From IMG/VR virus record IMGVR_UViG_3300036790_000814, positions 1 through 62,252 of that record: DNA of 62,252 nucleotides, one strand, 5' to 3'. The position numbers and the translations under genes were made by a program. Position 1 is the stretch's first letter, and every line of letters begins with the position of its first letter. The notes beneath the pieces were generated by a model. The model worked only from the letters and a program-made list of their open reading frames with translations. It had not been told where the DNA came from and did not search any database. Positions 17,560-62,252 of the stretch are shown here, one piece after another. Origin of the DNA: a virus. Lineage: Duplodnaviria > Caudoviricetes.

Positions 17560-17563
17560 ATTC

Positions 17564-42485: not shown

Positions 42486-42492
42486 AGGGCGC

Positions 42493-43109: not shown

Positions 43110-43123
43110 CGCCTCAAGCCGCC

Positions 43124-43152: not shown

Positions 43153-43196
43153 GGCCGCTCTTTCCCCGCTCGCTGTTTATCTAAGTTTTCTCGACT

Positions 43197-44807: not shown

Positions 44808-44810
44808 CGC

Positions 44811-45655: not shown

Positions 45656-45819
45656 GGAAGCTCCTTTAGTCCTGCGATGTAGGACAAATAGGATCGCAAC
45701 CGCCTCGGCGCAAGTGGGCCGGATGACATTTCTATCTTCCGCCGACACCAGATGAGATGGGAAACATCCCACGATTATCCTTGACGCCCTAGGCTCACCC
45801 CTCGCACGATAACCCCATC

Positions 45820-46203
45820 GTGAGCGACCATGAAGGGCTGGCTCTTGGCGTCGCACTGATCGCCGTCGGCATATGGCTTGCCGCACGCCGCCGTCCTGCG
45901 CGTCTGGTCGATCAGACCGTCTTCATCGTCCGCAACCTCAAGAACCTTCTGGCGATTGCGTTCGCGCTTTTTCTGCTGGCTTGGTGGGCCGGGGCCTTCA
46001 GTAATGACCAGGTTGAGCGTTGGTGGGAGCGCTTCTGGGATGAGGCCGCGCGTATCCCGTTCCTGGTCTTCCTTGCCTTCATCGTCGGCGCTCCGGCGGT
46101 CTGGCACTGGATCAACCGGGCGTACACCCTTCGGGGACCGCCGCAGATGCCGCCGCCACGTAGCAAACCCTACGGCTGGCGTAAGCCGGGCAACCGGGTT
46201 TGA
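45820..46203 (+). CDS. Membrane protein (3 predicted TM) coupled to the coupling-protein gene
   Basis: Hydrophobic segments; TTGA overlap with 46200. Confidence 0.7.
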   Translation: MSDHEGLALGVALIAVGIWLAARRRPARLVDQTVFIVRNLKNLLAIAFALFLLAWWAGAFSNDQVERWWERFWDEAARIPFLVFLAFIVGAPAVWHWINRAYTLRGPPQMPPPRSKPYGWRKPGNRV

Positions 46204-47513: not shown

Positions 47514-47751
47514 CCCTCCCAGCATTTCGGCGCTGCGGCAGGCTTCGTGGTCATTCTCTTGTGTGATTTTCTGATAGCAGAATGAGCATATCGTCTTGTC
47601 AGAATGGGAATCCGCCCAGGATCGGCTGTGCCGGAGCGGGCGCGGCTTTGGCGTCCACTGCGTCAGTGCGCGCGCACCGCGGCGGAACGTCGGGCTGCGG
47701 GTTTCGCGTTCGCCTGTCCCGCCCCTGCGCCGCCGCGCGACAGGCGGGGGA

Positions 47752-49650
47752 TTATCTCCCCCTTCCCCCCCTGTTCTGGCCGCGCTGCGCCTGTTTGGAT
47801 TGGGTCGGGCCGTCCGTAGTCTTCCCTTCGGCCCTGATCTTGTCGATCTTCTCGCGCATCGCGGGCGTGATGTGCCCGCGCTGTTCGTCCTTGCGCTCGT
47901 CGGCCTCAGCCGCCTTCGCCAACGTCTCGCGCGCGGCCGCCAGGTCGGCGCGGGTATGCTGCCCCTGCCCTCCCCGGTTGACCGCGCGCTCGGTCGCCAC
48001 ACCCTCATCGGCCGGTATCGTTCCTTGAGAGAGTTCCTCACGTGGCGCCTTCCGGGCCTCGTGGCCTTCCTGAAGCTTTTGGACCAATTGGGTAGGCAGG
48101 CCGGTGTTGGCCAAATCCTCGCGGAATTTTTCGACAACCCCCTCACGAACCTGTCTGGAAAGCTGCGTTCGGTATTCTCGCAGTTCCTCCGCGTAGCCCT
48201 CGCAGGCGTCGGCTTCCTGCACGGTGGCGATGGCGGACGGGTGATCCATGTTCCGCGTCGCGACCTGAGTGTAAGAGGCAATGCGCCGATCCGTTAGCGC
48301 CCGATATTCGTACCACTCGATATGCCGGTTGGTGCGCAGCAGTTCACGTTGAACGGGATCGGCTTCCTGTGCCTCCTGCCCCCGATACCAGTCTTGCTTT
48401 TCGGCGAAGGCCGCGTACTCGGCGCGCGCGGCGCTCGACAGTACAGTGTAGACATCGGCGGATGTGGTGGAAGCCGACAGCGCGGATGCGTAGCGCGAAT
48501 GCGCGTCGGCCGGTTCCCCGTTTCGCTCCAGCTCGGCGGTATGGCCGTCCCGCGTCCTCTTCCATCGTTCGGCCTCGCGGATCTCCGCCTCGCGCCTGGT
48601 CTCAAACGTCCTGAGTTCTTCGCCGCGCGTCAGTTGGTCCTGAATGAGCGCGGTGCGCTCCGCCCGCAGGTGATCGAGGCGTTCCTGCTGAAGCCGTACC
48701 TGCTTATCGTTGTCGTCGCCGGCCGGAATGTCGGGCCGCCCCGCGAGCCTCGGATCCGCTTCGCGCTTACGCTCGTCCTGGTCGTGTCCGGAGTCATCGC
48801 TCATCCCGCTCCCCTTCCCAGCTCTCTTGCGGCGCTCGTCTTCGAGGATGATGATTTCGGCAGTGAGTTTCGCCTGCTCGGCCTTCAGTTCATTTAGTTC
48901 AGCGTGGTGCCGCCGGTTGCGCGCTTTGACGGCCCGATTGTGCTCGCCGGTCGCCGTCGGCGCCCCGTCGAGCTCGGCCTGGTTCTGTTTGTTCCCCAGA
49001 TGCTTGGTCGGCTCAAGATCGATGCCCTGCTTGTCGTAGGTCTCGTGGGAAACCCGTTCACCGGATCCGATCAGCTCAAGGCGCTCGTTCAACACCGAGG
49101 CGAACATCTTCCGCTGCCAGATGGTTTCCTCAACCCGGGTTTTCTTGTCGGTGATCTCGCGCGCTTTCGCGCCGAACCCCTCCGGCCCGACGCGCCGCAT
49201 GTTGTAGCCGAGATGGATGTGCCAGTTCCGGTCGTCGCCGTGGTCGGTCGGCTTGTGAACCGCCCAAGTGACCATGACGCCATAGCGCTGGCTGATCTCC
49301 CGCGCCATGCGCTGCGCTACGTCGATATGGTCGCTCTCCGCAAACTCCCGCGAACTGGCAAGATTCCAGTGGTTGGCGACGTGGCTATTGATGCGCTTTT
49401 CAGAAGCCTCGACCGCGTTCCAGGCTTTGCCAAGCTGGTCATCATCGGTCAGGTAGGCCTGAGCACCAGACGGTGCGACTGTCCCCCAACCCGACACCTC
49501 ACCCGGATGGTTCCTCTTGCACCAGGTGCCGGTGCGTTCGTCCTTCAGGGTCTCGCCGGTCATGTAGGCCGCAAGGCCAACCGCCGACTTGCCTTCGCTC
49601 CGGCTCACGGCATCGATGTGGGCATGGTACCATGTCACGGGGACGGACAT
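47752..49650 (-). CDS. mobA: MOBQ (MobA/MobL) relaxase with long C-terminal extension
   Basis: YH.....SR..G.SAV..AAY (catalytic Tyr); WN.VE..EKR; AVH......RN.H.H (3H motif); PT.HLG; Arg-rich C-terminus. Confidence 0.92.
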   Translation of the reverse strand: MSVPVTWYHAHIDAVSRSEGKSAVGLAAYMTGETLKDERTGTWCKRNHPGEVSGWGTVAPSGAQAYLTDDDQLGKAWNAVEASEKRINSHVANHWNLASSREFAESDHIDVAQRMAREISQRYGVMVTWAVHKPTDHGDDRNWHIHLGYNMRRVGPEGFGAKAREITDKKTRVEETIWQRKMFASVLNERLELIGSGERVSHETYDKQGIDLEPTKHLGNKQNQAELDGAPTATGEHNRAVKARNRRHHAELNELKAEQAKLTAEIIILEDERRKRAGKGSGMSDDSGHDQDERKREADPRLAGRPDIPAGDDNDKQVRLQQERLDHLRAERTALIQDQLTRGEELRTFETRREAEIREAERWKRTRDGHTAELERNGEPADAHSRYASALSASTTSADVYTVLSSAARAEYAAFAEKQDWYRGQEAQEADPVQRELLRTNRHIEWYEYRALTDRRIASYTQVATRNMDHPSAIATVQEADACEGYAEELREYRTQLSRQVREGVVEKFREDLANTGLPTQLVQKLQEGHEARKAPREELSQGTIPADEGVATERAVNRGGQGQHTRADLAAARETLAKAAEADERKDEQRGHITPAMREKIDKIRAEGKTTDGPTQSKQAQRGQNRGGRGR

Positions 49651-49667
49651 TATTTGCTTCCTGCCTC

Positions 49668-49703
49668 TGCAAACGCGTGCGTTTGCAAAAGTGCGCTAAC
49701 CCT
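49668..49703 (+). other. MOBQ-type oriT: inverted repeat TGCAAACGC-GT-GCGTTTGCA followed by AAAGTGCG^CTAACCCT (predicted nic 49695/49696)
   Basis: Matches the RSF1010/MOBQ architecture IR + TAA(G/A)TGCG^CCCT; lies between divergent mobA and an accessory gene. Confidence 0.78.
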
Positions 49704-49817
49704 TCTACCGCCGCCTGCTTGCCTCTGCTCCATCGGCGGGCCTTTCCCCCGAACCATGGTTGCGCCATGATAACAGCGGCATCGCGGGAATGCACGACCA
49801 GAAAAGGGGGTGAGGAC

Positions 49818-50144
49818 GTGGGCGACACACTCGACCGGCTGACGAAGCTGAAGCAGAGGCAGGCGAAGCAGCTAGAAAAAGAGATTCAGGAAGCCACCAA
49901 GCGCAAGCAGTTGGAGAGCCGTATCCGCAGGGAAGAAGCGGCGCTGGCTTTGCGCCTCGCGGGTCTGCTGGGCGAGACGATACGGGACGCAACCCTGACA
50001 CCGGCGGAGCACGAAACCATTGCCGCGATTATCCGCCGCCGTGAGGGGCAGCCGCGGGATTGGGCGAAGGTGCTTGAGTGGTTGGAGGCTTCGGCTCCGA
50101 AGCCATTGCCGCAGGTGGTTACCGAAGCTATCCGGGCGGCCTGA
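49818..50144 (+). CDS. Probable relaxosome accessory protein (MobC/TraC-like coiled coil)
   Basis: Divergent from mobA across oriT; charged coiled coil; GAGGA RBS with GTG start. Confidence 0.55.
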   Translation: MGDTLDRLTKLKQRQAKQLEKEIQEATKRKQLESRIRREEAALALRLAGLLGETIRDATLTPAEHETIAAIIRRREGQPRDWAKVLEWLEASAPKPLPQVVTEAIRAA

Positions 50145-50349
50145 CGCACGGGTCAACGCCCTGCCATGAGTCTGGGCCGCCGCGTACGCCGCAGACCTGA
50201 CAGACAAGCTGCTGGTCATCCCATTGATGATCGGGCGGCGGTTCTGGGGGCTTCGACGGCGGCAGCTTTCCCCGCTTCCGCTTCTTCGCCATCCGGCGGA
50301 GATACTCCTTTCGGCTGACGGCAATGAAGTATTTGGGGCGGAGTTTCAT
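50128..50349 (-). CDS. Small basic Cys/His protein
   Basis: H.W......CQVCG........C. Confidence 0.5.
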   Translation of the reverse strand: MKLRPKYFIAVSRKEYLRRMAKKRKRGKLPPSKPPEPPPDHQWDDQQLVCQVCGVRGGPDSWQGVDPCVRPPG

Positions 50350-50355
50350 GTCGCC

Positions 50356-51033
50356 CTAGTCGCCCATATCCAACATAATCTGGTCTGGTTGGCGCTGCGC
50401 CTTTTCAATGCGAGCGCAGGCGATGTCGAAGTAGCGAGGCTCAATCTCGATTCCGACGAACGCTCTTCCTTTTCGCACGCAAGCAACGCCACATGTGCCG
50501 CTGCCCATGAACGGGTCGCACACCGTTTCCCCCTCGTCCGAAAACCAGTTCACCAGCCATTCCTGATGTATGAGGGCGCGGCTGCACGGATGGCCGTTCG
50601 GCGGCCTGTCGCCCGGCTGTGCTTTAGGTGAGACGCTTGGGATCACCCGACGTCCGGGGCTGCTTCTCACCGGCTTCCCGAAAACATAGGCCGTCTCGTT
50701 CCCGCCGAGAACGCGGCCGAGGTATCCCGGCATGACGTACTGGCACCATGCCATTTGCTGGAACGGAAGCCGGTCGGAGACGTGCCGCAGAACGCGCGGG
50801 TCGCTGTCGTTTCTCATGCACACTACGAGTTGCCGGAGTTCAGCCGGAAGGGACTGGCAGAAATCTGCAAACAGGCCGTCAGGATCTTCCCACCCCGCCA
50901 AAAGGCCAGTCGGACAGTTCGGCCAAACTGGGTCAGTGATGATCGCCTGTATGCCGGTCAGAACCTTCAAGAGATCGAGCGCGTCACCAAGATAGAGGGT
51001 GCAATTGCCGATAGTTTCCTTGTTGGGAGGCAC
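50356..51033 (-). CDS. Orphan beta-class DNA methyltransferase with variant motif IV (DPVW)
   Basis: TLYLGD; IITDPVW; HP; V.DPFMGSGT.GVA......F.GIE....YFDIAC.RI. Confidence 0.85.
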   Translation of the reverse strand: MPPNKETIGNCTLYLGDALDLLKVLTGIQAIITDPVWPNCPTGLLAGWEDPDGLFADFCQSLPAELRQLVVCMRNDSDPRVLRHVSDRLPFQQMAWCQYVMPGYLGRVLGGNETAYVFGKPVRSSPGRRVIPSVSPKAQPGDRPPNGHPCSRALIHQEWLVNWFSDEGETVCDPFMGSGTCGVACVRKGRAFVGIEIEPRYFDIACARIEKAQRQPDQIMLDMGD

Positions 51034-51071
51034 GTCACAGTCGCTCTCTCCCGCCTTGGCGGGTGTGGTGG

Positions 51072-51284
51072 TCAATCGGCTAGTAAAACCTCTGCATCTG
51101 GATTCAGGCGGCGGATCTCCGAAAGCACGGTTTCCGGCTTGACCTGTTCGGTGAACGCGGTCGGGATTCCGGTGGTGCCGAATAGCTCCTGTATCTCGGC
51201 GGCAAGGCGTCCGCGTCGATGGTAAGCCATCCAGCAATTGGCCTCGCACTTCAGCAGGATGTTCGGTGCCTTGCGTTCCGTCAC
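51072..51284 (-). CDS. Hypothetical protein (70 aa)
   Basis: LFGT..IPTAF motif; coupled ORF. Confidence 0.6.
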   Translation of the reverse strand: MTERKAPNILLKCEANCWMAYHRRGRLAAEIQELFGTTGIPTAFTEQVKPETVLSEIRRLNPDAEVLLAD

Positions 51285-51841
51285 GGATAGACCAGCGGCG
51301 TGAGTGTTCCCGGCAGGTAGAGCGGGTGCTCGGGCGTGCCACTAGCCAGCCGTAAATACCTCAGCTCGGCACCAGCATTTCTCAGCATCAGAATCACATC
51401 AGCAGCGCGCGCACGCAATGACAGGCTTGGCGGTTGGCCATACGCCAACACGACGATTTCAGACCGCGCAGCCATTGCAAGAATTGCCTCGTCGTTGCCC
51501 GGGCCGATAGGATCATCCGGATCACGAAGCCCAAATCTGTTTTGGTCAACATATGCGTGCATGTTGCCGACCAGTTGGCCGCCGTATTGCCATCTGCGAG
51601 CGAAGTTGCCGGTTCGTGTCAGAGTCCTATCGGCGTGCTCAACACACGCCACTGACGGGTTCATCATCAGGAACATCACTAGGGGCCTCGTGGCATCCCA
51701 TATTTCCGACAGCTCATAGCGATAGAGTCCGCATTCGGAAAACCTGGGGGTTACCACAGAGTCATTCGGCCACCGCGGGGGAGGTCGCCTACGTCGAGGC
51801 GCTGCACCCAATAAGTCGGCGGCGGTCGGTATGGTTGTCAT
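51281..51841 (-). CDS. DUF1643-family protein
   Basis: FS.CG.YRY.L...W.......F.M.NPS.A....D.T.......W.YGG....N...P.HPLY. Confidence 0.85.
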   Translation of the reverse strand: MTTIPTAADLLGAAPRRRRPPPRWPNDSVVTPRFSECGLYRYELSEIWDATRPLVMFLMMNPSVACVEHADRTLTRTGNFARRWQYGGQLVGNMHAYVDQNRFGLRDPDDPIGPGNDEAILAMAARSEIVVLAYGQPPSLSLRARAADVILMLRNAGAELRYLRLASGTPEHPLYLPGTLTPLVYP

Positions 51842-52056
51842 CGCCATCCTGGTGGTGGTCCTTCCGACAGGATCAGCCGGGCTAGGCCCTCGTTCGCCCC
51901 TCCGGCGCTCGACATGGCGGACTTTTCCCAGCCTTTGGCGCTGCGAACGATAATCATCCGACCGTCGACCGCGTAGCTGCCGAGCTTCTCCATGGTGTCC
52001 CTATCCACCACGTCATTCCAGTAAAGCGGCTCCGTGCGCTTCGGTCTTCTGGCCAT
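51838..52056 (-). CDS. Hypothetical protein (72 aa)
   Basis: GGAGG RBS; ATGA coupling. Confidence 0.6.
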   Translation of the reverse strand: MARRPKRTEPLYWNDVVDRDTMEKLGSYAVDGRMIIVRSAKGWEKSAMSSAGGANEGLARLILSEGPPPGWR

Positions 52057-52084
52057 GTGGTTGCCTCCGAGTCATGTCGGATAT

Positions 52085-52303
52085 TTAGCACAGAATCGTC
52101 TCGCCGGTTCGGTCGCGAACGTATTCCCCCGAACCTCCGCACCACTCGCACGCGACCTGAACTTGCTTTGGTTCTGCGCAGTCGCCTCGGCACTCACCAC
52201 CTTTGGTCAGATTCCCGCAACACCGTGGTTGGATATCGATCTGGAAACCGCTGCCGTCACACTCGGGGCAGGGCGGGGGTTCGGTGGTTCGTGTATCGGT
52301 CAT
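52085..52303 (-). CDS. Small CxxCxGxG zinc-finger protein
   Basis: CPECDGSG...CEWCGGSG. Confidence 0.6.
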   Translation of the reverse strand: MTDTRTTEPPPCPECDGSGFQIDIQPRCCGNLTKGGECRGDCAEPKQVQVACEWCGGSGEYVRDRTGETILC

Positions 52304-52444
52304 GGCTCTCCTTGCTGTGGGGTTAGTCGAATAGGCTTAGCTGGCCGCGTGGCGCTGCTGGTGGCTGCGCGTCGAGGCGTCTGGGTGATGGCCCGAACCG
52401 GCCTCGGCTCACCTGGCACAATCTCTGCGCGATCTGGTGGCATA

Positions 52445-53371
52445 TCAGTATTCCAGATTTCCGGCGGCAAACTGCTTGGCCCAAAATACGGCGGCGTTCG
52501 TGGCCTTCCGCTGCCATGCGCCAAAGCGGGGACTCCAATGCCAGCCCGCGCCTTTCAGAGTGACTCTGGTCTGCTCGTCCGGCTTGCCGTCAAAGAAAAT
52601 CTGAATCCGGTCTGCGTCGTGGTTGGCGACGACGCGAAGCCCTTCCTTGGCAACAATCTCAACCTCACCGGTCGGCTTGTTCGCGACGGCTTCGGCGGCG
52701 GTCTGCTCAAGGCTCCATGCCGAATGTGAAGGCATGAATATCGGCTTTGCCATGCTGGTTTGCTGCTCGCGGATGAAAGACAGCCCGCGCCGGACAAGTT
52801 CCCGCTCCCCGTTCGCGGCCAGCCGTTTCAGCTTTCCGGCCAAGCTGTTGACAAAGGCCGAACGGGTATAGGGCTTGGTTCCGTCGTCGATGGCCTTGAT
52901 AACGCCGATATCGCGGGCAAAATCGTGCTGTAGCTTGCGCCAGTCGTCTGTTGTCATCTGTTCCGGTGTGCGGGCGTCGAGGATGGCTTTTGCGGCGACG
53001 TCCTGCGCCCGCGCGTTCCACGCCTGAAACTCGGCGCGGCGGCGGTCAACTGTCTCGCCGCGCTTTCGATTGCTCTCGGTCGGGAATCTGGCGGGGCCGA
53101 CGATGAAAGCCGAAGCCGTCCGCGTCATGGCGTGCCAGATCGCGGTTTGATGCTCAGCATAGTTTCGCTGATAGCGTTCGACGTGTTCGGGGATAAGCGC
53201 CCGCTGCGCGTCCGTTTTTGCCAGTGTCTCCATTTTCTGCCGCAACCCTTCCACGGCTTCGTGGAAAAATCCAATGTCCCCATCGGCTCTGCGTTCGGGG
53301 AAATGGCTGAGATTAGCATAGGCCCGAATGGCAAGATCGCGGTCGAGGTGGGCAGGCAAAGCAGTCGTCAT
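52445..53371 (-). CDS. DUF3560-like/polyvalent-protein domain protein
   Basis: S.FPE.R; ASA.I.GPARFP...N.K; N...DRIQIFFDGKPD...R..LK..GW.WSP..GAWQR. Confidence 0.65.
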   Translation of the reverse strand: MTTALPAHLDRDLAIRAYANLSHFPERRADGDIGFFHEAVEGLRQKMETLAKTDAQRALIPEHVERYQRNYAEHQTAIWHAMTRTASAFIVGPARFPTESNRKRGETVDRRRAEFQAWNARAQDVAAKAILDARTPEQMTTDDWRKLQHDFARDIGVIKAIDDGTKPYTRSAFVNSLAGKLKRLAANGERELVRRGLSFIREQQTSMAKPIFMPSHSAWSLEQTAAEAVANKPTGEVEIVAKEGLRVVANHDADRIQIFFDGKPDEQTRVTLKGAGWHWSPRFGAWQRKATNAAVFWAKQFAAGNLEY

Positions 53372-53388
53372 AGTCTAGCTTTCCCCGG

Positions 53389-53712
53389 TCAAGCCGGTGC
53401 AAAGGTGTGCTTTCTAGCTTTCTGCTGTTTCCCTCGAATCAGCCGTTCATAAGCGGCATCAATGCTCACGTCCGGCGCGATGGATACACCGCTGGTAGAA
53501 ATGCCGCCGCGTGCGGAGGGGAGGGCGGGGATTCTGGATGTCGCCCGCTCTGCGGCCCCAATCCATGCGTCAATCTTGTTGGGATCGAACGTCCAGACAC
53601 CTCCGAGCTTGGCGGCTCCGGGTATCTTGCCTAATGCGGCGAGAGATTGAACCTGTCGAAGCGATAGGCTTGTCCGATTTACAACATCTGTGGGGCGGAT
53701 GCGGTCACTCAC
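53389..53712 (-). CDS. Excisionase-like HTH protein
   Basis: LS.RQVQ.LA..GKIPGA.K.G..W.FD...I.AWI. Confidence 0.7.
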   Translation of the reverse strand: MSDRIRPTDVVNRTSLSLRQVQSLAALGKIPGAAKLGGVWTFDPNKIDAWIGAAERATSRIPALPSARGGISTSGVSIAPDVSIDAAYERLIRGKQQKARKHTFAPA

Positions 53713-53797
53713 GAAATCCTTTGCTTTCTCCCCATAATGGGGGCCGGTTTAATAATCAGATTCTAGTTATCCCACGCCATGAAACAAGCAAAATCAT

Positions 53798-53812
53798 GGC
53801 AACATTGTTGCT
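53798..53812. promoter_or_regulatory. Palindromic operator-like site, copy 3 (GGCAACATTGTTGCT)
   Basis: Same 13-bp core; 86 bp upstream of the excisionase-like gene. Confidence 0.8.
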
Positions 53813-53814
53813 AT

Positions 53815-53973
53815 TTATTGCGGGGCTGGCGGCTTCCATTCCCTCGGCGTTGGATTCCTGTTCCATGACCATCTGGCAATATCGGAAAGCTGATTCCATG
53901 AGGGCCGGACTGCGCCATCCTGATACGTCGGCTTTCGGCGGCAATCTTCCTCGTAGGCGTCCCGTCCGGTCAG
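53815..53973 (-). CDS. Small hypothetical protein (TGRDAYEEDCRRKPTYQDG...; start uncertain, CTG)
   Basis: Protein-like frame coupled to the stop of the upstream gene. Confidence 0.4.
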   Translation of the reverse strand: MTGRDAYEEDCRRKPTYQDGAVRPSWNQLSDIARWSWNRNPTPREWKPPAPQ

Positions 53974-54197
53974 AGCTCGATTCCCCGAAGCCGATACGGA
54001 ACACCCTGATTGATTCGATCGACCATGCCACGGCGGAACTGTTCCATGACTTCCCTGCCGGAGCATGACCACCAGCATGTCAAGCCATGCTTGAACACCA
54101 TATCGGGATTCGCCTTCGCCAGCTTGATCGCTTGAACGTAGGCTGCGAGGGTGACGGTGCGGTTGATGGCGGGAAGGGTGATGGTGCGGGTAGGCAT
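53970..54197 (-). CDS. Hypothetical protein (75 aa)
   Basis: GGAG RBS; MPTRTITLPAINR. Confidence 0.6.
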   Translation of the reverse strand: MPTRTITLPAINRTVTLAAYVQAIKLAKANPDMVFKHGLTCWWSCSGREVMEQFRRGMVDRINQGVPYRLRGIEL

Positions 54198-54234
54198 GGA
54201 TGGTTGATTTCTCCCGCTGGTGCGGGGTTTGGGG

Positions 54235-54753
54235 TTAGCAAATCTCGAATCCACCGCAGTCCTCAAGGAAGACGGCAAATCCTTCGATATTCTCAATGTT
54301 GATGTGGTATCCCGCCGCCCATGGCTCTTTGTCACCGCGTCCATCACAGCCATTGCACCAACCAACTTGCCCGTTGCGCGGGTGACCGTCCTCCTCAATT
54401 TTTCTGGTGTCCTGTCCGGCTTTCTTGCCTATCGCATCAGACCTTACGCCTGAACCGTTGCACAGTGGGCAGGTTTCGCGCGGGAGACCGGCGAGGGCGC
54501 TTGCTCTTTTGTCGATGTAGGCTTCCGCCGCGCCGCTTGCGATGCTCTGCCGCAGATGCGCCGCCAAATTCTTGGATGTCGCGGCGTCCAGCCCATCACC
54601 ATCATTCAAATGCCAGTGCTCGCAACGCGATGTAAGGTCATCGGGTGCGGTATCGAGGATGAAATCGGCAAGCGGACGCCACCACCATACATTGTTCCGA
54701 AAATACTTGCCCTTCTCCGATGTCGGAGCTTTCCCGTAAACGTCCATCCCCAT
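54235..54753 (-). CDS. Phage-type protein with CxxCxGxG insert
   Basis: MGMDVYG...G.YFRNNVWWWRPL...NDG.GL...FL..CGGFEI; GGAG RBS. Confidence 0.7.
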   Translation of the reverse strand: MGMDVYGKAPTSEKGKYFRNNVWWWRPLADFILDTAPDDLTSRCEHWHLNDGDGLDAATSKNLAAHLRQSIASGAAEAYIDKRASALAGLPRETCPLCNGSGVRSDAIGKKAGQDTRKIEEDGHPRNGQVGWCNGCDGRGDKEPWAAGYHINIENIEGFAVFLEDCGGFEIC

Positions 54754-55134
54754 GATACGCACTTTCTCCGGCTTGCCGCCGGTCTTGGTTGTCGGCCCTG
54801 TCGGGCGGGTGACGGTTGCTCTCCACCGACAAGTCACACACCATAGGGAACATCGGAAGGACGATCCCCCGCGCATGTGTCGCGCTGCGTTTAGATGGGC
54901 GGTGGCTCCTTCATCCATTCCGTCGATCTTGAATGACCGCTACCTTGACGCCGTGAGGCCCAAGGGCCGCATCACCCCGCTGTTGTTCGGGTTTTATGGG
55001 TTTCCCTTGCAATCCCACCCCTTGCGGGGACGGTGGGTTACCACCATCGGCCACAGTTTCCCGTGAACCTCTCCATCTTGGTTTAACGAGCCGGAAGGAT
55101 ACGCTGCTCGACTCCCTCGCGGGAATTTCTTGGC

Positions 55135-55245
55135 TCAATTCCCCAACAGGATAAACAGGGCCAGCACCACACCGGCGATGAAGCTGGCGATGGCAAGCAA
55201 AACCATCTGGGCGCGGGTGAAGGTGTGGGGTGTGGGTTCGGTCAT
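55135..55245 (-). CDS. 36-aa single-TM peptide (MTEPTPHTFTRAQMVLLAIASFIAGVVLALFILLGN)
   Basis: Translated by hand; ATGA coupled to the 55242-55514 gene. Confidence 0.5.
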   Translation of the reverse strand: MTEPTPHTFTRAQMVLLAIASFIAGVVLALFILLGN

Positions 55246-55514
55246 GCTGCACCTTCCACCGAGAACCGAACCGCGTCTTGTCCTCTGGCATTGAGAAAGG
55301 TGGTGCCGAGATCGCCGTGGATGTTCACGGCCCGGACGATCAAGGCAGCTCTGGCGGCGGCTTCTGCCCGGTGTTCATCTAAACCCGTCTTCGCATAAAC
55401 TACGCAGAAGTACGTCTTTCCGCCATCTGCGCTTATGTGGTGCCTCATGCCGCTGGCTGTCGGCTCCGGCGGTATCACGCTCCACGGAATCGGTGTGTGT
55501 GTTGTCTCGCTCAT
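55242..55514 (-). CDS. Phage early protein (HTP.PW...A.LIVRAVN type)
   Basis: Motif recalled from small temperate-phage early proteins. Confidence 0.6.
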   Translation of the reverse strand: MSETTHTPIPWSVIPPEPTASGMRHHISADGGKTYFCVVYAKTGLDEHRAEAAARAALIVRAVNIHGDLGTTFLNARGQDAVRFSVEGAA

Positions 55515-55723
55515 GCGGCCGCCCCAAACTGCCCGTGTTCGGCCATGATCTCATCAACCGCGTCTTGGTCGATCTCCGCATCTCCGCCGCAATCCGAGCA
55601 TGCCTTGGGGCCGTCCGCTTCTTCAATCGGTCGCCAGCAAATGGCACAGACGTAGCCGCCCTCGATCTCGTCTGGCGTTGGCTCCGGCATGAACCCCGCG
55701 TATTTCTCCTTGGCGCTACCCAT
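55511..55723 (-). CDS. Small acidic Zn-ribbon protein
   Basis: CAIC...CSDC; GGAGG RBS. Confidence 0.6.
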   Translation of the reverse strand: MGSAKEKYAGFMPEPTPDEIEGGYVCAICWRPIEEADGPKACSDCGGDAEIDQDAVDEIMAEHGQFGAAA

Positions 55724-55724
55724 G

Positions 55725-56099
55725 TCACGCCCTCCCGCTGCAGCGAGAGCGCAGACCGTCGCGGTTCTTCACGTACCAGCTTTCGGCCTCGATCAGCCGG
55801 TCATAGAGAAGCTCCGCCGTCTTGGCGCAGTTGTAGGCTCCCTGCGGCGGCAACACGCAGCGTTCGCGTTTGGCTTCTTCGACGGTGTGCAGCTTGGGCA
55901 TGATCGCATACGGGTGATTGCCTTCATTCCAGCCGTGATATTCGATGAAGAAATGCTCGGTTTCGGCTTTGCTGATCGTGTTGCTCTGCTCGGCCACGTC
56001 TTGCAGGGATACCGGCTCGCCAGTGCGGGCCGCGTCCATCACGCCATTGCAAAAGGCGTCAAGCTTCTCCGGTGTGGTGCAGTCGATAATTAATGTCAT
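55725..56099 (-). CDS. Hypothetical protein (124 aa)
   Basis: ATG at 56099 after GGGGA; first gene below the 56175 palindrome. Confidence 0.6.
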   Translation of the reverse strand: MTLIIDCTTPEKLDAFCNGVMDAARTGEPVSLQDVAEQSNTISKAETEHFFIEYHGWNEGNHPYAIMPKLHTVEEAKRERCVLPPQGAYNCAKTAELLYDRLIEAESWYVKNRDGLRSRCSGRA

Positions 56100-56174
56100 G
56101 GCATCCCCGCTAAGATGAAGTGAATTGAATGAATGTAGGATACCAATATATTGGGGTAGTGCAATATAAATCAG

Positions 56175-56189
56175 AGCAACATTGTTGCT
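56175..56189. promoter_or_regulatory. Palindromic operator-like site, copy 4
   Basis: AGCAACATTGTTGCT in AT-rich intergenic DNA. Confidence 0.8.
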
Positions 56190-56246
56190 ATTATTTGAAC
56201 GACGGTAGGAGTAATCTACCTGTGCATGTGAATCGTGCTGGATAAC

Positions 56247-56282
56247 AAAAACCCCGCCTTCTGAGGGGCGGGGCTTCTGTTT
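56247..56282 (-). terminator. Intrinsic terminator downstream of the parB-like gene
   Basis: AAAA-CCCCGCCTTC-TGA-GGGGCGGGG hairpin; U-tract on the minus strand. Confidence 0.7.
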
Positions 56283-56483
56283 GGTCAACCGGACACGGCC
56301 ACAGCTTACCCTGCTTGCATGCTTGGTGGAAGCTAATTCGGTGTGGCACTCTCTCCACCCGTCACGCCTAATAAGAGGTGGCGTTCCCCCTGCACGGTCC
56401 GCCCCGTGCGGCCTAGTAGGACGTCATCGCTTCTTGGACTATAGCGCCCGCGAAGCTCCGTCCGTTCGCTATGGGATTCCTTG

Positions 56484-58343
56484 CTACCCAGCTTGCATGA
56501 TCGGCGGTAACCAGCCCCGCCCTTTCAGCTCGGCAGAAATTGCCTTCGCCATCGGCTCCCGCTTCATAGCTTCGATGCCCTTGCGCTTTGCTGGCGGGAT
56601 TGCTCCATCAAGCTCGGCCAGCAACGCGGCTTTCGGCACTCGGCTGAAGTAGCTCTCTGCGTTCGCCGTCCAGTGCTTCCCCATGTCGAGCTTCAACGCC
56701 TTGGTGAGTTCGGCGGATGAGTCCTTCGCCTCGGCTCCGTTCGACTGCACCACGTCGATGGTGAGCGCGGCACACACGGCCAGAAGCCCCTGCACGGTGG
56801 CCGCGTTCTGCTCCGCCATCCAGCCCCACAAGTCCTCCGGCTTCTTCGGCAGTTTTTTCTGCCAAGCCTTCACGATACCGGCCAGCTTCTTCCCCGCCGC
56901 CGATTTCTCCACCTGCTCGTTGATCGCCAAGGGATAGTTCGTTTCGTGCGGGTTGATGCCCAAGCTGCTATGCTCTCCGCCGAGCTGGTAAAGCAGTTTC
57001 AGCGCGAGGACGTGGGTCACGGCCAGCAATCCCACCTTGGGGTTACCCGCCATCTCCACCTGAGCCGCCACATTCTTCTGGCTGGTCAGTTCCGCGACCA
57101 GCGCCGCCGACAGGCCGCCCTTGGCCTTCTCCGGCTTCGCTGCGCCATTACCGCTCTGCTCGGCCCCGTTCGCGCCGTGCGCCAGCTTACGGGCTGCTCC
57201 CTTGTCCTCAGGCTTCACCAGACCCTGCAAGACAGAAGCCTCGCCATTATGCCCGATGGTGACCAGAACGCCGCCGACGGCCATCTGCGCCAGCGTATAG
57301 ACGGGTTCGCCATCGGATAGCTCGTCGATCTGCTGGTACAGGTCACCAAGGCGCTCGGCGGCAGCTTCGTCGTCCGGCTCCTCCCCATGCTTCTTCATGA
57401 TCTTGTCGGCCTCGGCCTGTAGCGCGGCTATCTTCGCGCTCGTTTCCTCGTCCGGCTCCGCCCGGCCTGGTTGCAGGTGTCCGAAGGCGTTCTTCTGCTC
57501 ATAGGGCAGGTTGGGGATAACCTCGACCCATTTCCAGCCTATGCTTCTGAAAGCTATGGCGGCGGCGGTAAGCTTCTCCTCGGCCAGCCGGTTCACCAGC
57601 GCGGAGTCGGTCAACCATCCTTCCCCTTTGTCGGCAAACAGATCTCGCGTGATGCCGCCACCGGCCTTCTCATAGGCTTCGAGCGTCACGAACTTTGCGA
57701 TGGCACTATCAGCTTCCACCTGCTCGTTGGTCAGCGCGGCGCGTATCTGGTCGGCCCTGCCGTTGCCCTTCGCCCAATCCGGGAGGTCGCGCCAGACTTT
57801 CTCCTGCTTTTTCCTGTCCGACTCGATGGTGAAAGCCGTCACTTGGTCAAACGACATCTCGCCCTTCTCGAAAATGGTGATGAGCTTGGGGCTGACCGTC
57901 GTGGCGATTTTCAAGAACTGGTTCACATGGCGAAGCGGGGCAACAAGCTTTGCGGCTATCGTCTCAGGGCCATCGCCTTGATCGTTCAGTTTTTTGATGG
58001 CGTTCCATTGGTCTATTGGATGCATTTCGACGCGAGTTATGTTTTCAACCAAGCTGGTCTCAACCAATGTGGGATCGTTCGCATCCCGCACCTCGCACGG
58101 AACCAGATAGTCACCAGTTATTTTTTTCTGCTTAAGCAGCAGCTGCATGGCGGCAAGGCGAGTCCCCCCGATGACCACGCCAAATTTTTCACCTTCAACG
58201 GGATGGACACGCAGATTTTGGATCACACCGTGCTGTTCGATGCTGCGAGCAAACTCCTCGATGGTTTCCTTGGGGCGGATTTTTCTGACATTCAGGTCGG
58301 ACAGAACGAGGCTGCTCAGAGGGATGTTTTGTATCTCAGACAT
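56484..58343 (-). CDS. Long plasmid-type ParB/RepB/Spo0J-family protein (619 aa)
   Basis: IPLS.L..S..NVRK; SI...G.IQNL.V; V..GG.RL.A; SL.EN..R..MHP.DQ; Y..AGG....DLF; W......YF.RV.K. Confidence 0.88.
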   Translation of the reverse strand: MSEIQNIPLSSLVLSDLNVRKIRPKETIEEFARSIEQHGVIQNLRVHPVEGEKFGVVIGGTRLAAMQLLLKQKKITGDYLVPCEVRDANDPTLVETSLVENITRVEMHPIDQWNAIKKLNDQGDGPETIAAKLVAPLRHVNQFLKIATTVSPKLITIFEKGEMSFDQVTAFTIESDRKKQEKVWRDLPDWAKGNGRADQIRAALTNEQVEADSAIAKFVTLEAYEKAGGGITRDLFADKGEGWLTDSALVNRLAEEKLTAAAIAFRSIGWKWVEVIPNLPYEQKNAFGHLQPGRAEPDEETSAKIAALQAEADKIMKKHGEEPDDEAAAERLGDLYQQIDELSDGEPVYTLAQMAVGGVLVTIGHNGEASVLQGLVKPEDKGAARKLAHGANGAEQSGNGAAKPEKAKGGLSAALVAELTSQKNVAAQVEMAGNPKVGLLAVTHVLALKLLYQLGGEHSSLGINPHETNYPLAINEQVEKSAAGKKLAGIVKAWQKKLPKKPEDLWGWMAEQNAATVQGLLAVCAALTIDVVQSNGAEAKDSSAELTKALKLDMGKHWTANAESYFSRVPKAALLAELDGAIPPAKRKGIEAMKREPMAKAISAELKGRGWLPPIMQAG

Positions 58344-58379
58344 TGATCGTCTCTTTCTCTCGCGAACGCGAGCTTCGGG

Positions 58380-59087
58380 TTAAACTGCACGTTTCAAAGG
58401 CTTTGCGGCGGGATAGAGAGCTTCGGCGACAGGAATGCCCTGCCTCAATCTATGCCGTAGGGTGAAGGGGTTGATTCCGACGAGGCTTGCAATATCCGAT
58501 GCAGGAAGCAATTCACCGTTGAACTCGTATAGCTTGGTGCAACGCCTGTTATTAACGTTCTGCTTGCGAGTCACCCATCGGCAATTCTCAGGGCTATAGT
58601 CATCGTCATTGTCGATGCGGTCGATCTGTAGATCGTCCCGATAGCCGTGCGCCAATGCCCATTTGGCAAATGCCATGAAGTCTCTGAGCCAGAGGTCACT
58701 AATCTTGATGCCGCGCCCCCCGTAGTCATGATAGGACAGGTCGCTTTTATTATAGCATCTAGTCTTCATGCCTCGCCAAGTCTTATAAAGGCGCGTCTTG
58801 GACATACCGTGTGTGGTGAGCTTCGCCGCCCCGATAGTCCTTAGTTGTTTAAGGCGAAAGCACCCGCAGCTAGTCACCTCGCCGGATACCATGGGGCGTG
58901 CCCCGACCAGCTTGACGTTCCCGCAATCACAAGCACAAACCCAAGTGGAAACATGCTTGTTCATGTGACTGTAGGACACGACGAAAAGACGGCCATACTT
59001 GTGGCCGGTAAGGTCAGATTTGAGATGCCTTGTTTCTGTTGACCTGAGGTTCCGATATGGAACGGTGATGCATTGAATGGTGGTCAC
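58380..59087 (-). CDS. HNH homing-endonuclease-like protein
   Basis: C.CDCGN; SCGC; HGMS.TRLY..W..MK.RC; YGGRGI; IDRIDND..Y.P.NCRW. Confidence 0.85.
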   Translation of the reverse strand: MTTIQCITVPYRNLRSTETRHLKSDLTGHKYGRLFVVSYSHMNKHVSTWVCACDCGNVKLVGARPMVSGEVTSCGCFRLKQLRTIGAAKLTTHGMSKTRLYKTWRGMKTRCYNKSDLSYHDYGGRGIKISDLWLRDFMAFAKWALAHGYRDDLQIDRIDNDDDYSPENCRWVTRKQNVNNRRCTKLYEFNGELLPASDIASLVGINPFTLRHRLRQGIPVAEALYPAAKPLKRAV

Positions 59088-59127
59088 AGTTGGTAGGCTT
59101 TCTCCCCGCTAGGCGGGGCGTTTGGGG

Positions 59128-59331
59128 TTAGGCTTCAATTCCGAATGCGTGTTCCCAGCCTTCTGTGCCGAAAAAGTCGTCCTCTGACAGACTATCGAGG
59201 CACTCCTGCGTCAACATGAGCAAGAGTTCTTTCGCGCTGTCTGGGTTGCTCTCGACATGCTTCTTCAGCCCGTCGCAGATTTGGTTGATGGCTTCCGCTG
59301 CTCCTGCGTCCGACATTTTTTCGATGTTCAT
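59128..59331 (-). CDS. Hypothetical protein (67 aa)
   Basis: LD.L...DFFGTEGW motif. Confidence 0.6.
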   Translation of the reverse strand: MNIEKMSDAGAAEAINQICDGLKKHVESNPDSAKELLLMLTQECLDSLSEDDFFGTEGWEHAFGIEA

Positions 59332-59442
59332 GGCTGAAATCTTTCTGCCCTTGTGGGCGGTTGATTGATTCTTGGCCCCGCAGGGCATAGGCATTCGCAA
59401 AACCACCCTAGCAATACATCACGGTAATGCAACAGGAAATAG

Positions 59443-59457
59443 AGCAACAATGTTGCC
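59443..59457. promoter_or_regulatory. Palindromic operator-like site, copy 5 (AGCAACAATGTTGCC, reverse orientation)
   Basis: Reverse complement equals copy 3. Confidence 0.8.
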
Positions 59458-59561
59458 ATTTCCGGCCTATGCGCCCGTTACCCTCTTGACTGGAATCGTC
59501 TTCTCCTGCTCAGGCACATTCTTGGTCGGATCGCTCAGACGGCATTTTGGGCTAACACACA

Positions 59562-60428
59562 ATGGTACGCACACTTTATTTGGACCACAGCATCGTGTCG
59601 CACGAACCGTGGTGGCTGCCCGTCGAGCAGGTGGTTGCCTCGCGCGAAGTACGCTTGGCTCTGTCGCTCTGGAATCTGTTTGAGATCGGCGCAGCCAGCA
59701 ACATGGGACAGCGGGACAGACGCCTTGCGTTCCTTGAAAAACTAGACCCTCTGTGGATGATTGAGCGGAGAACCATTCAGAAGCAGGAAGTCGAACGCTT
59801 TCTCTGGCGCCACAAGTTTGGCCGTACTCCCCGGGACATGCTCGTTCTGACTCCTTCCCTATCGGTGGTCGAATCCTTCATATCTGGCCCACAGACACAC
59901 ATAGGGCTAACCCCCCGTCAATTCATTCGTGAGCTGGATTACAATCGGCTGAACCCACTAAAGAAACTGTCACCCGAGGCTCAGACCACCTTGAAGAAGG
60001 CAGATCCCGCAGCTCTGAAAAGGAGCGACAAAGGGATGTTCGTCGGCTGGGTAAATCAATCCATTCCGATCTGCAATCCCGATGGGCAGCCTATGACGGC
60101 CGTTGCTCGGTTAGAATTGGCTGAGTTCTGCTATCGGCGCCGGGCTGAGTTCTTAGCGGAGTGTCCGTCCATGGCGGTAGAGGACGCGCTCACGACGGAC
60201 CGGACTCGCGACCGGCAGCGCAAGCCGACCGACTCCGACGGTCCTGATGCGCAGCACACAATAGCCGCACTCCCGTATTGCGATTTATTTTTCACGCGGG
60301 ACGGCTATCAGGCGCGGAGTGCAACGGTGGTAAGGCGCATGCTAAAGGCACTGAAGTTGGCCGAGATATGCACAGGCCCTGACCAATTAAGCGAGGTGGC
60401 TTCGGCCCTTAGGGGAACGCCAGGTTGA
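59562..60428 (+). CDS. PIN-like domain protein
   Basis: LYLDHSIV; LS.WNLFEI; D..D..H...ALPYCD.F.T.D acidic residue pattern. Confidence 0.6.
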   Translation: MVRTLYLDHSIVSHEPWWLPVEQVVASREVRLALSLWNLFEIGAASNMGQRDRRLAFLEKLDPLWMIERRTIQKQEVERFLWRHKFGRTPRDMLVLTPSLSVVESFISGPQTHIGLTPRQFIRELDYNRLNPLKKLSPEAQTTLKKADPAALKRSDKGMFVGWVNQSIPICNPDGQPMTAVARLELAEFCYRRRAEFLAECPSMAVEDALTTDRTRDRQRKPTDSDGPDAQHTIAALPYCDLFFTRDGYQARSATVVRRMLKALKLAEICTGPDQLSEVASALRGTPG

Positions 60429-60464
60429 CCTTGCGTCAGCAGTCTGGTCGACCAGCCCAGTCCC

Positions 60465-60890
60465 CTATGTAACGCTCTTGAACTTATTCGAGCCGTGTCC
60501 AGTATGATCTGTCAGAGGTTCATCAACATCTTTAATGACATTGCCTGATTTATCGCGAATGAACTCGCGGGCTCGCCTGGTGTCACGATTTATCTCATAC
60601 TCCCGATAAACATAATCGCCCTGTGAGCGTCTTATTTCCCAACCGGATTTGAACGTTATCCGCAGCTTGTCCTTACTGCGCCGCGAATTGTCCTTGGCCT
60701 TAAAACTGATATGATCGCGGACAATGATCGGCAGGTCCTTGATGGGGGGGAGCGTGATATGCTGCTTGGCCGGGCCGCACATGGGGCACAGGCTTGCCGG
60801 ATGCCCTGCTTCTGACCCTTCCTCCGTCAGCACTTGTCCGCAGACACCGCATTGAATGACGTCGCTGTCGTTCATTGGCTGTGTTCTCAC
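60465..60890 (-). CDS. Zn-ribbon hypothetical protein
   Basis: CGVC...CPMC; R.I.R.....E.........EPL..H.GHGS. Confidence 0.6.
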   Translation of the reverse strand: MRTQPMNDSDVIQCGVCGQVLTEEGSEAGHPASLCPMCGPAKQHITLPPIKDLPIIVRDHISFKAKDNSRRSKDKLRITFKSGWEIRRSQGDYVYREYEINRDTRRAREFIRDKSGNVIKDVDEPLTDHTGHGSNKFKSVT

Positions 60891-61087
60891 TTTAGTATGC
60901 CTTGGACGTTATAGCCCAGCCGGATCTCCTCTTCAGTCTGGACGAGCCGGGCCTCGGCCTCCGGATTGCCGTCACGCAGCGCGTAGCTTCGGTAGCAATG
61001 CCAGCAGCAGACCAAGCCTTTGTCTTTCGGCCCTCCGCACAATGGGCAAATCAGGCTGGCGCGAAGACGCGGATGAGCGTTATCCAC
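60887..61087 (-). CDS. Small Cys-rich protein
   Basis: CPLCGG.K..G.VCCW.CY; GGAG RBS. Confidence 0.6.
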   Translation of the reverse strand: MDNAHPRLRASLICPLCGGPKDKGLVCCWHCYRSYALRDGNPEAEARLVQTEEEIRLGYNVQGILK

Positions 61088-61190
61088 TCCAGCCCTCCAA
61101 TTCTCTTCGCCCTCGTTGCGTCGGGCAAGTCGTATGGACTTTTGACCATGGTGAGATAGACTCGCGATCGAAAGCTGCGGAGCGGGAACC

Positions 61191-62252
61191 GTGCCGAAAG
61201 CTGGCTACCTTTACAAGCGCGGAGATACCTATTGGGGCCGAGTCCGTCTGGCCGGACGGGAGCACAGGCGCAGCTTACGAACGTCTGATGCCCGGGAAGC
61301 TGCCAGGCGACTCAAGGCGTGGCGGCTCAAGGTTGAGCGCGCGGTTGTGGCGGATCCCGACTCCCCGACCTTCAAGGCAGCGGTGGTCAAATGGGCAGAA
61401 GAAGTCCTGCCAAAATCGGTGAAGCCTGCCGTCATGCGGCGCTATCTGACCAGCATTGCGCAACTCGACCCTGTCTTTGGCCCGCTCCGCATTGGTGAGG
61501 TCAACACGGCCAAAATCAGCGAGTATGTGAGCCTCCGCACACGCACAACCAGCAATGCCACCATACGCAGGGACTTGACGGCCCTCTCGCGCCTGATGGC
61601 GGCTTGCGTGGCATGGGGATGGCGCGATGATAACCCTGTGCGCCTATATGACCGTAGCGTTGTCCTGCGCGAACGCCGGGAGCCGATTGAGCCGCCTGGT
61701 GAGGATGATTTCCAGCGCGTGCTGGCTGCCGTTCCTGAGGCAATGGCGAAGGTGCTGCGGCTCCTCGACCAGACCGGCATGCGCGAGAATGAAGCGGTCG
61801 TCCTGACGGCAAGCGACGTGAACAAGGAACGGAAGCAAATCACGCTCCTGCGAACCAAGACCAGCCGCCCGCGCACCCTCGATTGGAAGACCCCCGCAGG
61901 GGACGCTACGGACGCGCTGACGGCCGGGGAAGAGAAGGGGGTGCTGTTCCCCTCTCGCAGCGGGAAGCCATACGGCAACTTCGCCAGCGCCTTCGGGGCA
62001 GTCATGCGTCGCGTGGTCGCTGCCGAAAAGAAGGCCAAGCGTCCCTTCCGCCGGTTCCGCGTCCACGATCTCCGCCACGGCTTCGCCATCCGTTGGCTAA
62101 AGAATGGGGGCGGGATATATGAGCTGTCCAAGCACCTTGGACACTCGTCCGTAAAAACGACAGAGGGCTATCTGGGCTACCTGTCTGGGAAGGAACAGAA
62201 ACTTGCACAAACTGGGGCACAGTGGCATGTTGGGTTAGCAGCCGCAGAATGA
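61191..62252 (+). CDS. int: Tyrosine recombinase/phage integrase
   Basis: TGMR..E; TKT; HDLRH; LGH; terminal TEGY catalytic Tyr; N-terminal RRSL.T arm-binding region. Confidence 0.95.
   Translation: MPKAGYLYKRGDTYWGRVRLAGREHRRSLRTSDAREAARRLKAWRLKVERAVVADPDSPTFKAAVVKWAEEVLPKSVKPAVMRRYLTSIAQLDPVFGPLRIGEVNTAKISEYVSLRTRTTSNATIRRDLTALSRLMAACVAWGWRDDNPVRLYDRSVVLRERREPIEPPGEDDFQRVLAAVPEAMAKVLRLLDQTGMRENEAVVLTASDVNKERKQITLLRTKTSRPRTLDWKTPAGDATDALTAGEEKGVLFPSRSGKPYGNFASAFGAVMRRVVAAEKKAKRPFRRFRVHDLRHGFAIRWLKNGGGIYELSKHLGHSSVKTTEGYLGYLSGKEQKLAQTGAQWHVGLAAAE

Follow-up and report, generated by a model that had tools for sequence, protein, structure and literature searches.

Can a tailed phage carry, beside an origin of transfer (oriT), the kind of leading region known from conjugative plasmids? 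The question is raised by the 62,252-bp virus record IMGVR_UViG_3300036790_000814 of IMG/VR (Duplodnaviria; Caudoviricetes), which was analysed in its entirety and is referred to here as the window. Its right arm contains a relaxase gene (mobA), an oriT and a block of mostly small genes directed back at that oriT, and the original prediction was that 49696-59460 is a plasmid-style leading region. The gene families and orientation of the block do support a leading-region anatomy, and we consider the chances about even that the interval forms the arm next to oriT, the one transferred first, of a MOBQ (RSF1010-type) module built into a temperate contractile-tailed phage; that the block functions as a leading region is plausible, with the balance again close to the middle. 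The record is classed as a provirus with a CheckV completeness of 100%; its virion module is complete, contractile-tailed and encoded on the plus strand at 18.7-41.6 kb (terminase, portal, major head, sheath, baseplate and tail fibres), and the left arm carries recombination genes and an early switch.

The mobilization functions lie between the virion module and the block, and are arranged as follows.

46200-47513, plus strand: short VirD4/TraG-type coupling protein of 437 amino acids (aa) without a membrane anchor (Pfam T4SS-DNA_transf 5e-59, TraG-D_C and TrwB_AAD_bind)
47752-49650, minus strand: MOBQ relaxase MobA/MobL, 632 aa (Pfam PF03389 MobA_MobL 3.4e-33, residues 21-225)
49668-49696, plus strand: oriT, TGCAAACGCGTGCGTTTGCAAAAGTGCGC, with 9-bp arms at 49668-49676 and 49679-49687 around a 2-nt loop, then 1 nt, then the core AAGTGCGC at 49689-49696
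49818-50144, plus strand: basic, charged protein of 108 aa in a MobC-like position, the first gene past the predicted nick; codon-position GC supports the frame

The distance from the start codon of mobA (49650) to the inverted repeat of the oriT is 18 nt. The 8-mer AAGTGCGC alone is not rare, with three occurrences in the window against 3.3 expected, and the same position was therefore compared in three small MOBQ plasmids found in the relaxase search (pLM12P1, pYAN-1 and pACMV6) and in the related phage G001. In all five loci, the window included, AAGTGCGC comes 1-3 nt after an inverted repeat; both are read on the strand opposite to that of the relaxase gene, the repeat being the nearer of the two to that gene, and the layout of the window oriT is that of the RSF1010/R1162 type. 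In R1162 the nick is inside the core, with the repeat 5' of it and transferred last, and by this analogy the nick in the window is predicted to fall between 49695 and 49696. Transfer proceeds 5' to 3' from the nick. The conserved layout, taken with the biochemistry of R1162, supports the original proposals that the plus strand is nicked with the repeat on the mobA side, that transfer would run rightward with mobA last, and that the block side would enter first.

The relaxase itself fits this assignment at its N-terminus, since its nearest plasmid matches are annotated MobQ relaxases with 33-38% identity over the N-terminal 40-50% only; its homologue in G001 is 42% identical, and no primase or other known domain was found by Pfam in the C-terminal half. 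The 108-aa protein encoded divergently from mobA across the oriT is labelled MobC by its position only: it has no Pfam, PHROG or NCBIfam match, and no significant similarity to the MobC-type open reading frames (ORFs) of the three plasmids or to its G001 counterpart.

The coupling protein is short, and the question arises whether it is a fragment. Its alignments to the NCBIfam TraG/VirD4 models begin only at about position 140-225, the best model being that of the short CD1115 family, and its maximum 19-residue hydropathy is 1.02. All of the 119 homologues listed besides the window's own protein are likewise short (438-546 aa, 46-58% identity) and contain all three Pfam domains of type IV coupling proteins, which together with the curated NCBIfam family of short VirD4-like proteins argues that it is not a fragment. 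Homologues in three related records (G001, G002 and L039) are 39-45% identical. Many members of this short family are on contigs of 20-100 kb, and the few that are named come from Paraburkholderia, Methylovirgula and other soil taxa. VirB4 was found in none of three records, which suggests that the element is mobilizable rather than self-transmissible and that it would need the secretion system of a helper.

What would follow the oriT into a recipient? The block consists of 16-17 genes on the minus strand at 50128-59406, all pointing at oriT, as judged from codon-position GC, family matches and inspection of start sites; the outer coordinate of 59331 is the best start of the last gene, whose ORF is open to 59406. 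The claim that every called gene from 50128 to 59331 is on the minus strand thus stands for the block, and the transferred strand would be the template for these genes, although the 108-aa gene on the plus strand had been missed, and not every gene within the interval is templated by that strand. Two members of the block are plasmid-like in sequence.

56484-58343, minus strand: YfjB/HerB-like long ParB-family protein, 619 aa (ParB_N 1.3e-10; phrog_7783 3.6e-65, residues 4-618)
50356-51033, minus strand: orphan N6/N4 DNA methyltransferase, about 225 aa (Pfam N6_N4_Mtase 2.2e-12; phrog_67; NCBIfam PRK13699-type; PADLOC MTase_II/oMTase), with its true start near 51033 and not at 51342

The long ParB-like protein, recognized already in the original prediction, aligns end to end with YfjB/HerB of the F plasmid (E 3e-38, 26% identity; residues 6-618 against 37-634 of 652), in an alignment that takes in the C-terminal half (D3-D4 of the HerB preprint). 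At the N-terminus it is shorter by 33 residues, and a threonine stands in place of the first Box II arginine; the residues facing HerB R94 and E130 are R and E, which preserves the arginine of Box II and the glutamate of Box III. According to a 2026 preprint (PMC13370423), R94 (CTP binding) and E130 (Mg2+ coordination) are required for focus formation, and YfjB/HerB is a conserved leading-region protein that is made immediately on entry and loads onto the host chromosome. The family is overwhelmingly plasmid-borne: plasmid searches gave at least 5000 records, at least 4899 of them at 80% query coverage or more, and 3792 of the 5000 listed are typed conjugative, whereas phage records gave two at that coverage, both of them short unannotated contigs. 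The homologue in G001 is 38% identical. A second, short ParB-like gene (9113-9934, plus strand), whose product is 62% identical to a G001 counterpart, is present in the left arm of the window; in length it is unrelated to the HerB-like one.

The methyltransferase, which had also been foreseen, is similar in size to the methylase of the F leading region and 30% identical to it over 107 aa (E 2e-12). On the F map the ParB-like gene lies between ssb and psiB, and the methylase gene and the ParB-like gene are both directed at oriT; orphan methyltransferases are a prominent leading-region family and leading-region genes are encoded on the T-strand, according to Samuel et al. 2024 (Nature). The phage has two methylases, the other being a large DNA methyltransferase of 579 aa in the left arm (14479-16218, minus strand).

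The block is also tied to the phage, in this case by a repeated 13-mer, GCAACATTGTTGC. It is the most repeated 12- or 13-mer of the record, with five exact copies that are all intergenic, a count matched in none of 100 shuffles.

1136-1148: copy 1, between genes at 434-1012 (minus) and 1150-2445 (plus)
6483-6495: copy 2, within the early switch of the phage, in its divergent gap of 148 bp
53799-53811: copy 3, 87 nt upstream of the helix-turn-helix gene of the block
56176-56188: copy 4, at the head of a transcription unit of the block
59444-59456: copy 5, which is reversed, in the divergent gap that heads the block
56252-56273: terminator of the transcription unit with the HerB-like gene, a hairpin rich in G+C, with runs of T on either strand

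The block resolves into three transcription units (59.4 to 56.3 kb, 56.2 to 54.0 kb and 53.8 to 50.1 kb), and copies 3-5 provide one 13-mer at the head of each. The repeat therefore looks like an operator common to the early switch and the oriT-proximal block, and its presence in both arms suggests that the block is wired into the phage and does not belong to a neighbouring island. It is absent from G001 and from G002. A promoter scan gave three sites against 3.3 expected, all on the plus strand and none facing the block genes.

The remaining genes of the block, all on the minus strand, are as follows.

50128-50349, minus strand: basic protein of 73 aa (isoelectric point, pI, 10.0); frame supported; no Pfam, PHROG or NCBIfam family
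51072-51284, minus strand: 70-aa protein; frame supported; no Pfam, PHROG or NCBIfam family
51281-51847, minus strand: DUF1643 protein, 188 aa (Pfam 9.7e-33; phrog_3230; 164 homologues)
51838-52056, minus strand: 72-aa protein; frame supported; no Pfam, PHROG or NCBIfam family
52085-52303, minus strand: acidic 72-aa protein (pI 4.5), zinc finger of CxxCxGxG type (DnaJ_CXXCXGXG at 1.7e-4, a weak match that misses the curated cut-off)
52445-53371, minus strand: DUF3560-like protein, 308 aa (ESM Atlas features 0.93 and structure TM score 0.79 to DUF3560-named clusters)
53389-53712, minus strand: possible excisionase/AlpA-like helix-turn-helix protein, 107 aa, a weak assignment (HTH_17 6.9e-4, below cut-off; phrog_1840 excisionase 3.9e-4; weak coding signal)
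53970-54197, minus strand: protein of about 75 aa; frame supported; start from start-site inspection; no Pfam, PHROG or NCBIfam family
54235-54753, minus strand: 172-aa protein with an inserted DnaJ-type CxxCxGxG zinc finger, of a large, mostly viral family
55242-55514, minus strand: 90-aa protein; weak phrog_1273 match and no other family
55511-55723, minus strand: very acidic zinc-ribbon protein, 70 aa (pI 4.1); frame supported; weak DZR_2 and rubrerythrin-like matches
55725-56099, minus strand: protein of about 124 aa; start from start-site inspection; no family and no PDB relative
58380-59087, minus strand: HNH homing-endonuclease-like protein, 235 aa (phrog_374 8.6e-66; PADLOC HEase)
59128-59331, minus strand: acidic protein of about 67 aa; no Pfam, PHROG or NCBIfam family

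The DUF1643 and DUF3560-like proteins had both been named in the original prediction. The former is secured by Pfam, and its AlphaFold2 model (mean pLDDT confidence 86) has a generic three-layer alpha/beta fold only (best Z 6.3). The latter is identified by its ESM Atlas features and structure and not by Pfam, which is silent at E<=0.01; its C-terminal 60 aa match phrog_19458 and phrog_6744, and it has no PDB sequence relative. The 172-aa protein is present letter for letter in the ESM Atlas, in clusters that are 83-94% viral, with 1715 homologues. Its AlphaFold2 model (pLDDT 96) has no Foldseek match in the PDB at E<=1e-3 beyond the inserted zinc finger, and the best rows of its VIA comparison (YfbM, Z 6.1; CdiI, Z 5.7; the DNA mimic DMP12, Z 5.5) are below a meaningful level, leaving DNA mimicry as a lead only; the protein is mildly acidic (pI 5.2). 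PADLOC gave no match for three other block genes scanned with the methyltransferase.

The dozen or so small ORFs of no known family that were anticipated are there: about 11 ORFs between 36 and 172 aa long fall into no family of Pfam, of PHROGs with a function or of NCBIfam. The further proposal, that these are anti-restriction, anti-CRISPR or anti-SOS candidates, did not find support in the hidden Markov model searches, which returned no such family among the small ORFs (Pfam, PHROGs and NCBIfam on 20 proteins), and PDB sequence searches with four block proteins gave nothing credible. Several block ORFs are acidic (pI 4.1-5.2), which proves nothing about function, and anti-defence roles for the small ORFs are so far unsupported. 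The original caveat that ardC is on the trailing side of oriT is borne out.

43564-44496, plus strand: ArdC, with ArdcN and zincin metallopeptidase domains (Pfam 2.1e-28 and 2.5e-45; phrog_7245), on the trailing side of oriT

If the leading-region interpretation is right, the sequence of events might be as follows. After excision, MobA would nick the plus strand of the phage circle at the AAGTGCGC core and stay on the 5' end, perhaps assisted by the 108-aa protein, and the anchor-less VirD4-like ATPase would pass the MobA-DNA complex to the type IV secretion system of another element in the same cell. The plus strand would then enter the recipient from 49696 rightward, with the 10-kb block first and mobA last. 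As each block unit carries the phage operator, the units would be silent in a lysogen and switched on at once in a cell without repressor, whether it was reached by injection or by mating, and derepression of the operator could yield the early burst that F obtains from single-strand promoters. The products, namely the HerB-like ParB clamp, the orphan methylase, the DUF1643 and DUF3560-like proteins and the 11 or so small proteins, may aid establishment.

The likeliest alternative is that the block is an ordinary early or accessory arm of the phage that serves infection and induction, the oriT being incidental to it and the orientation reflecting operons read from the lysogeny end to mobA. We regard this as rather unlikely. 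The points that follow speak for it or against a leading region. The operator of the block is identical to that of the early switch, and several block genes are typical of phages: the HNH endonuclease, the mainly viral 172-aa family, and DUF1643, which has a PHROG and has a homologue behind the tail fibres of a relative (L017) known from a 13-kb fragment without a relaxase. Long one-strand blocks are found elsewhere in the window, 18.7-41.6 kb being equally uniform on the plus strand, so that the co-orientation of the block is no more than would be expected by chance in a phage, and the first gene past the nick is on the strand opposite to the block. No SSB, PsiB, ArdA, KlcA, toxin-antitoxin or hok-type gene was detected in the block with Pfam, NCBIfam and PHROGs, and the small ORFs matched none of the anti-defence families searched for. 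Three intergenic gaps were folded as single-stranded DNA, with no Frpo model behind the search, and gave z scores of -2.06, 0.23 and 0.21 and no Frpo-like long hairpin; the only value below -2 stems from the terminator hairpin. Ordinary operator-controlled promoters require the second strand, and template-strand orientation therefore counts for less here than it does in F.

The relatives add to this list. The mobilization genes are only 36-42% identical among them, compared with 50-80% for the structural genes, and L039 has a 734-aa relaxase of a different subtype, 27% identical to MobA (12035-14239, minus strand), and no repeat-plus-AAGTGCGC origin that we could see. This low identity and the divergent relaxase without a matching oriT suggest that the mobilization locus after the tail fibres is a site of cassette exchange. 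The blocks of the window and G001 have the HerB-like gene alone in common, each also having an HNH-type gene with no detected similarity to the other, and no whole block is common to the window and any of the relatives found. The record is, moreover, a metagenomic provirus cut without attachment (att) sites.

Against an ordinary early arm stand, first, the family of the HerB-like protein, which at full length is a plasmid family with hardly any phage members, and second, the position of its gene, which in both the window and G001 faces a conserved oriT from the leading side. Relaxase and coupling protein together are not known to act in infection.

A second alternative, which we think improbable, is that the window fuses a prophage ending near 41.7 kb with a separate integrative mobilizable element running from ArdC to the integrase. 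The record has no terminal repeat and both its ends fall exactly on stop codons, which marks it as an excerpt of a longer contig (92,382 bp); it is cut exactly at gene ends and contains no att sites. The single integrase stands at the mobilization end, and divergence among relatives is much greater for the mobilization genes than for the structural ones. There are precedents for elements that combine a MOBQ relaxase with a VirD4-like gene (PMC8627217).

61191-62252, plus strand: tyrosine integrase (phrog_1 7.5e-48; sole PF00589 match in the record), whose stop codon ends at the last base of the window

A contig from a public sequencing run, a soil DNA metagenome from which the record may derive, spans 42253-62252 unbroken and ends 73 nt past the integrase stop codon, which is compatible with an assembly break at or near an attachment site; contig joints in the same comparison had only 21-22 nt on their sides and were not trusted.

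The fusion is opposed by the operator common to both arms and by the relatives. In the window, G001, G002 and L039, the four related records long enough to show it, the tail fibres are followed by the coupling protein (plus strand); the order continues into the relaxase (minus strand) and a co-directional block in the three that run on, G002 ending within the coupling-protein gene. In G001 the single integrase is at the end opposite the mobilization arm, each complete record having one tyrosine integrase, and a 16-bp exact direct repeat, TTCTGACGACGCCCAG, at 12078-12093 and 77065-77080 (E 0.022) brackets 65.0 kb from the integrase through the HerB-like gene, including the mobilization arm. G+C content is higher outside the repeat; comparison with the middle 40 kb gave no repeat of that length, and there is no tRNA gene at either copy. 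We take the repeat as a candidate attL/attR pair, enclosing both phage and mobilization arm. The gene at 42687-43109, just before the ArdC operon, has homologues in the relatives L011 and L012. Phage and mobilization arm are, we think, likely to be a single element.

Searches for relatives with the coupling protein returned G001 first and then two new records and G002; the relaxase gave one viral contig, two weak genome matches and no metagenome match. Five fragmentary relatives are without MobA, and four of these also without a coupling protein, but they end within 6-9 kb of the fibres or are truncated in some other way, and they say nothing about absence. In G001 and L039 (17401-18333, minus strand, in the latter) ArdC is upstream of the relaxase gene and co-directional with it, and in L039 this holds for all minus-strand ORFs of 90 aa or more upstream of the relaxase. 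Of these two the oriT was located in G001 only, so that only the G001 block can be called a leading side; it has ArdC and the HerB-like gene, both directed at oriT, and eight ORFs of 90 aa or more there point at oriT after three opposite ones beside it.

The last alternative, that the relaxase, oriT and coupling genes are a decaying remnant or have a non-conjugative use such as rolling-circle initiation of phage DNA, and that there is no functional leading region, appeals to the fact that HUH nucleases also initiate rolling-circle replication, to the missing TraG/VirD4 membrane anchor and to the lack of a secretion system on the element, but is similarly improbable given that the genes and the oriT are intact, that the short coupling protein belongs to a large conserved family, a short VirD4-like family being curated in NCBIfam, and that four diverged phages have retained the module.

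How does the preferred reading, a MOBQ module with its leading arm in a temperate phage, compare with known systems? It resembles the RSF1010/R1162 module in its MobA/MobL relaxase, in the repeat, 1-3 nt and AAGTGCGC of its oriT and in the divergent small gene across it; it differs in that the relaxase has no primase domain, the element has its own short coupling protein, the divergent ORF lacks MobC-type similarity, and the whole is a 62-kb tailed prophage rather than a small plasmid. With the F-like leading region, as described by Samuel et al. 2024, it shares an oriT-adjacent, first-entering side, template-strand orientation, a methylase of about 225 aa, a YfjB/HerB-type ParB protein and small genes of no family. 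Unlike that region it has no detected ssb, psiB, ardA, klcA or hok, its promoters contain a phage operator, and a homing endonuclease and viral families are mixed in. The comparison with YfjB/HerB of F itself (PMC13370423) covers the full-length alignment, the Box II arginine, the Box III glutamate and a gene directed at oriT, while the window protein is phage-borne and shorter at the N-terminus, and its CTP binding, DNA loading and host reprogramming are predictions from homology.

The Mesorhizobium elements with MOBQ and VirD4-like genes (PMC8627217) are alike in combining an integrase, a relaxase, an oriT and their own coupling protein with no mating-pore genes; unlike integrative mobilizable elements, the window element has virion genes of its own and would not depend on a helper for all transfer. 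Phage-plasmids are episomal and characterized by replication and partition genes, whereas the window element integrates. They and the 'conjugative prophage' Phi1207.3 of Streptococcus pyogenes resemble it in that a phage is combined with another way of spreading, plasmid-like or dependent on contact; for Phi1207.3 conjugal transfer is mentioned, and its abstract describes no relaxase, oriT and coupling-protein module. A limited open-access search, which included papers on hitcher elements, found no tailed phage or prophage described with a relaxase, an oriT and a coupling protein. The parts are therefore known (the MOBQ module, the leading-region families and integrative elements with a coupling protein), but we have not found their combination in a complete tailed prophage under its own operator described.

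Some further features of the window and results of the searches may be noted. Two tRNA genes, tRNA-Met(CAT) and tRNA-Ser(CGA), are at 17483-17653 on the plus strand, just 5' of the packaging genes, and an Rfam scan of the window found nothing beyond them. Over its whole length the 640-aa product of 10864-12786 (minus strand) resembles PDC-S39, a candidate defence family of PADLOC (E 1.8e-85), and it also matches phrog_5183. A search for the major head protein in 401 genomes, from the class of one weak match, gave none at E<=1e-30, and comparison of the DNA at 47-60 kb with phage and plasmid collections gave nothing useful, with a single 43-bp match.

More broadly, and somewhat more tentatively than for the interval itself, we suggest that these records represent a lineage of temperate soil phages with two routes of spread: their own virions, and a hitch-hiking kit made up of a MOBQ relaxase, an RSF1010-type oriT and an anchor-less coupling protein. 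A plasmid-like leading region would have come under the phage immunity operator, its establishment and counter-defence genes, including a HerB-type clamp, would fire by zygotic induction after either kind of entry, and the locus behind the tail fibres would be a site at which relaxase-type cassettes are swapped.

It is usual to think of phages and conjugative elements as distinct vehicles, each with its own limits of host range. If the interpretation offered here is true, a prophage that leaves through the mating pore of another element would escape receptor-based host range, and a 62-kb virus could reach cells to which the phage cannot adsorb. The conserved oriT and the short coupling protein provide simple markers for a census of such hybrids. 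The YfjB/HerB family has only recently been given a function in F, and is found here in a phage beside some 11 uncharacterized genes under one operator, a compact group of candidates that can be tested for roles in establishment or counter-defence; the early genes of phages and the genes of leading regions would then form one shared pool.

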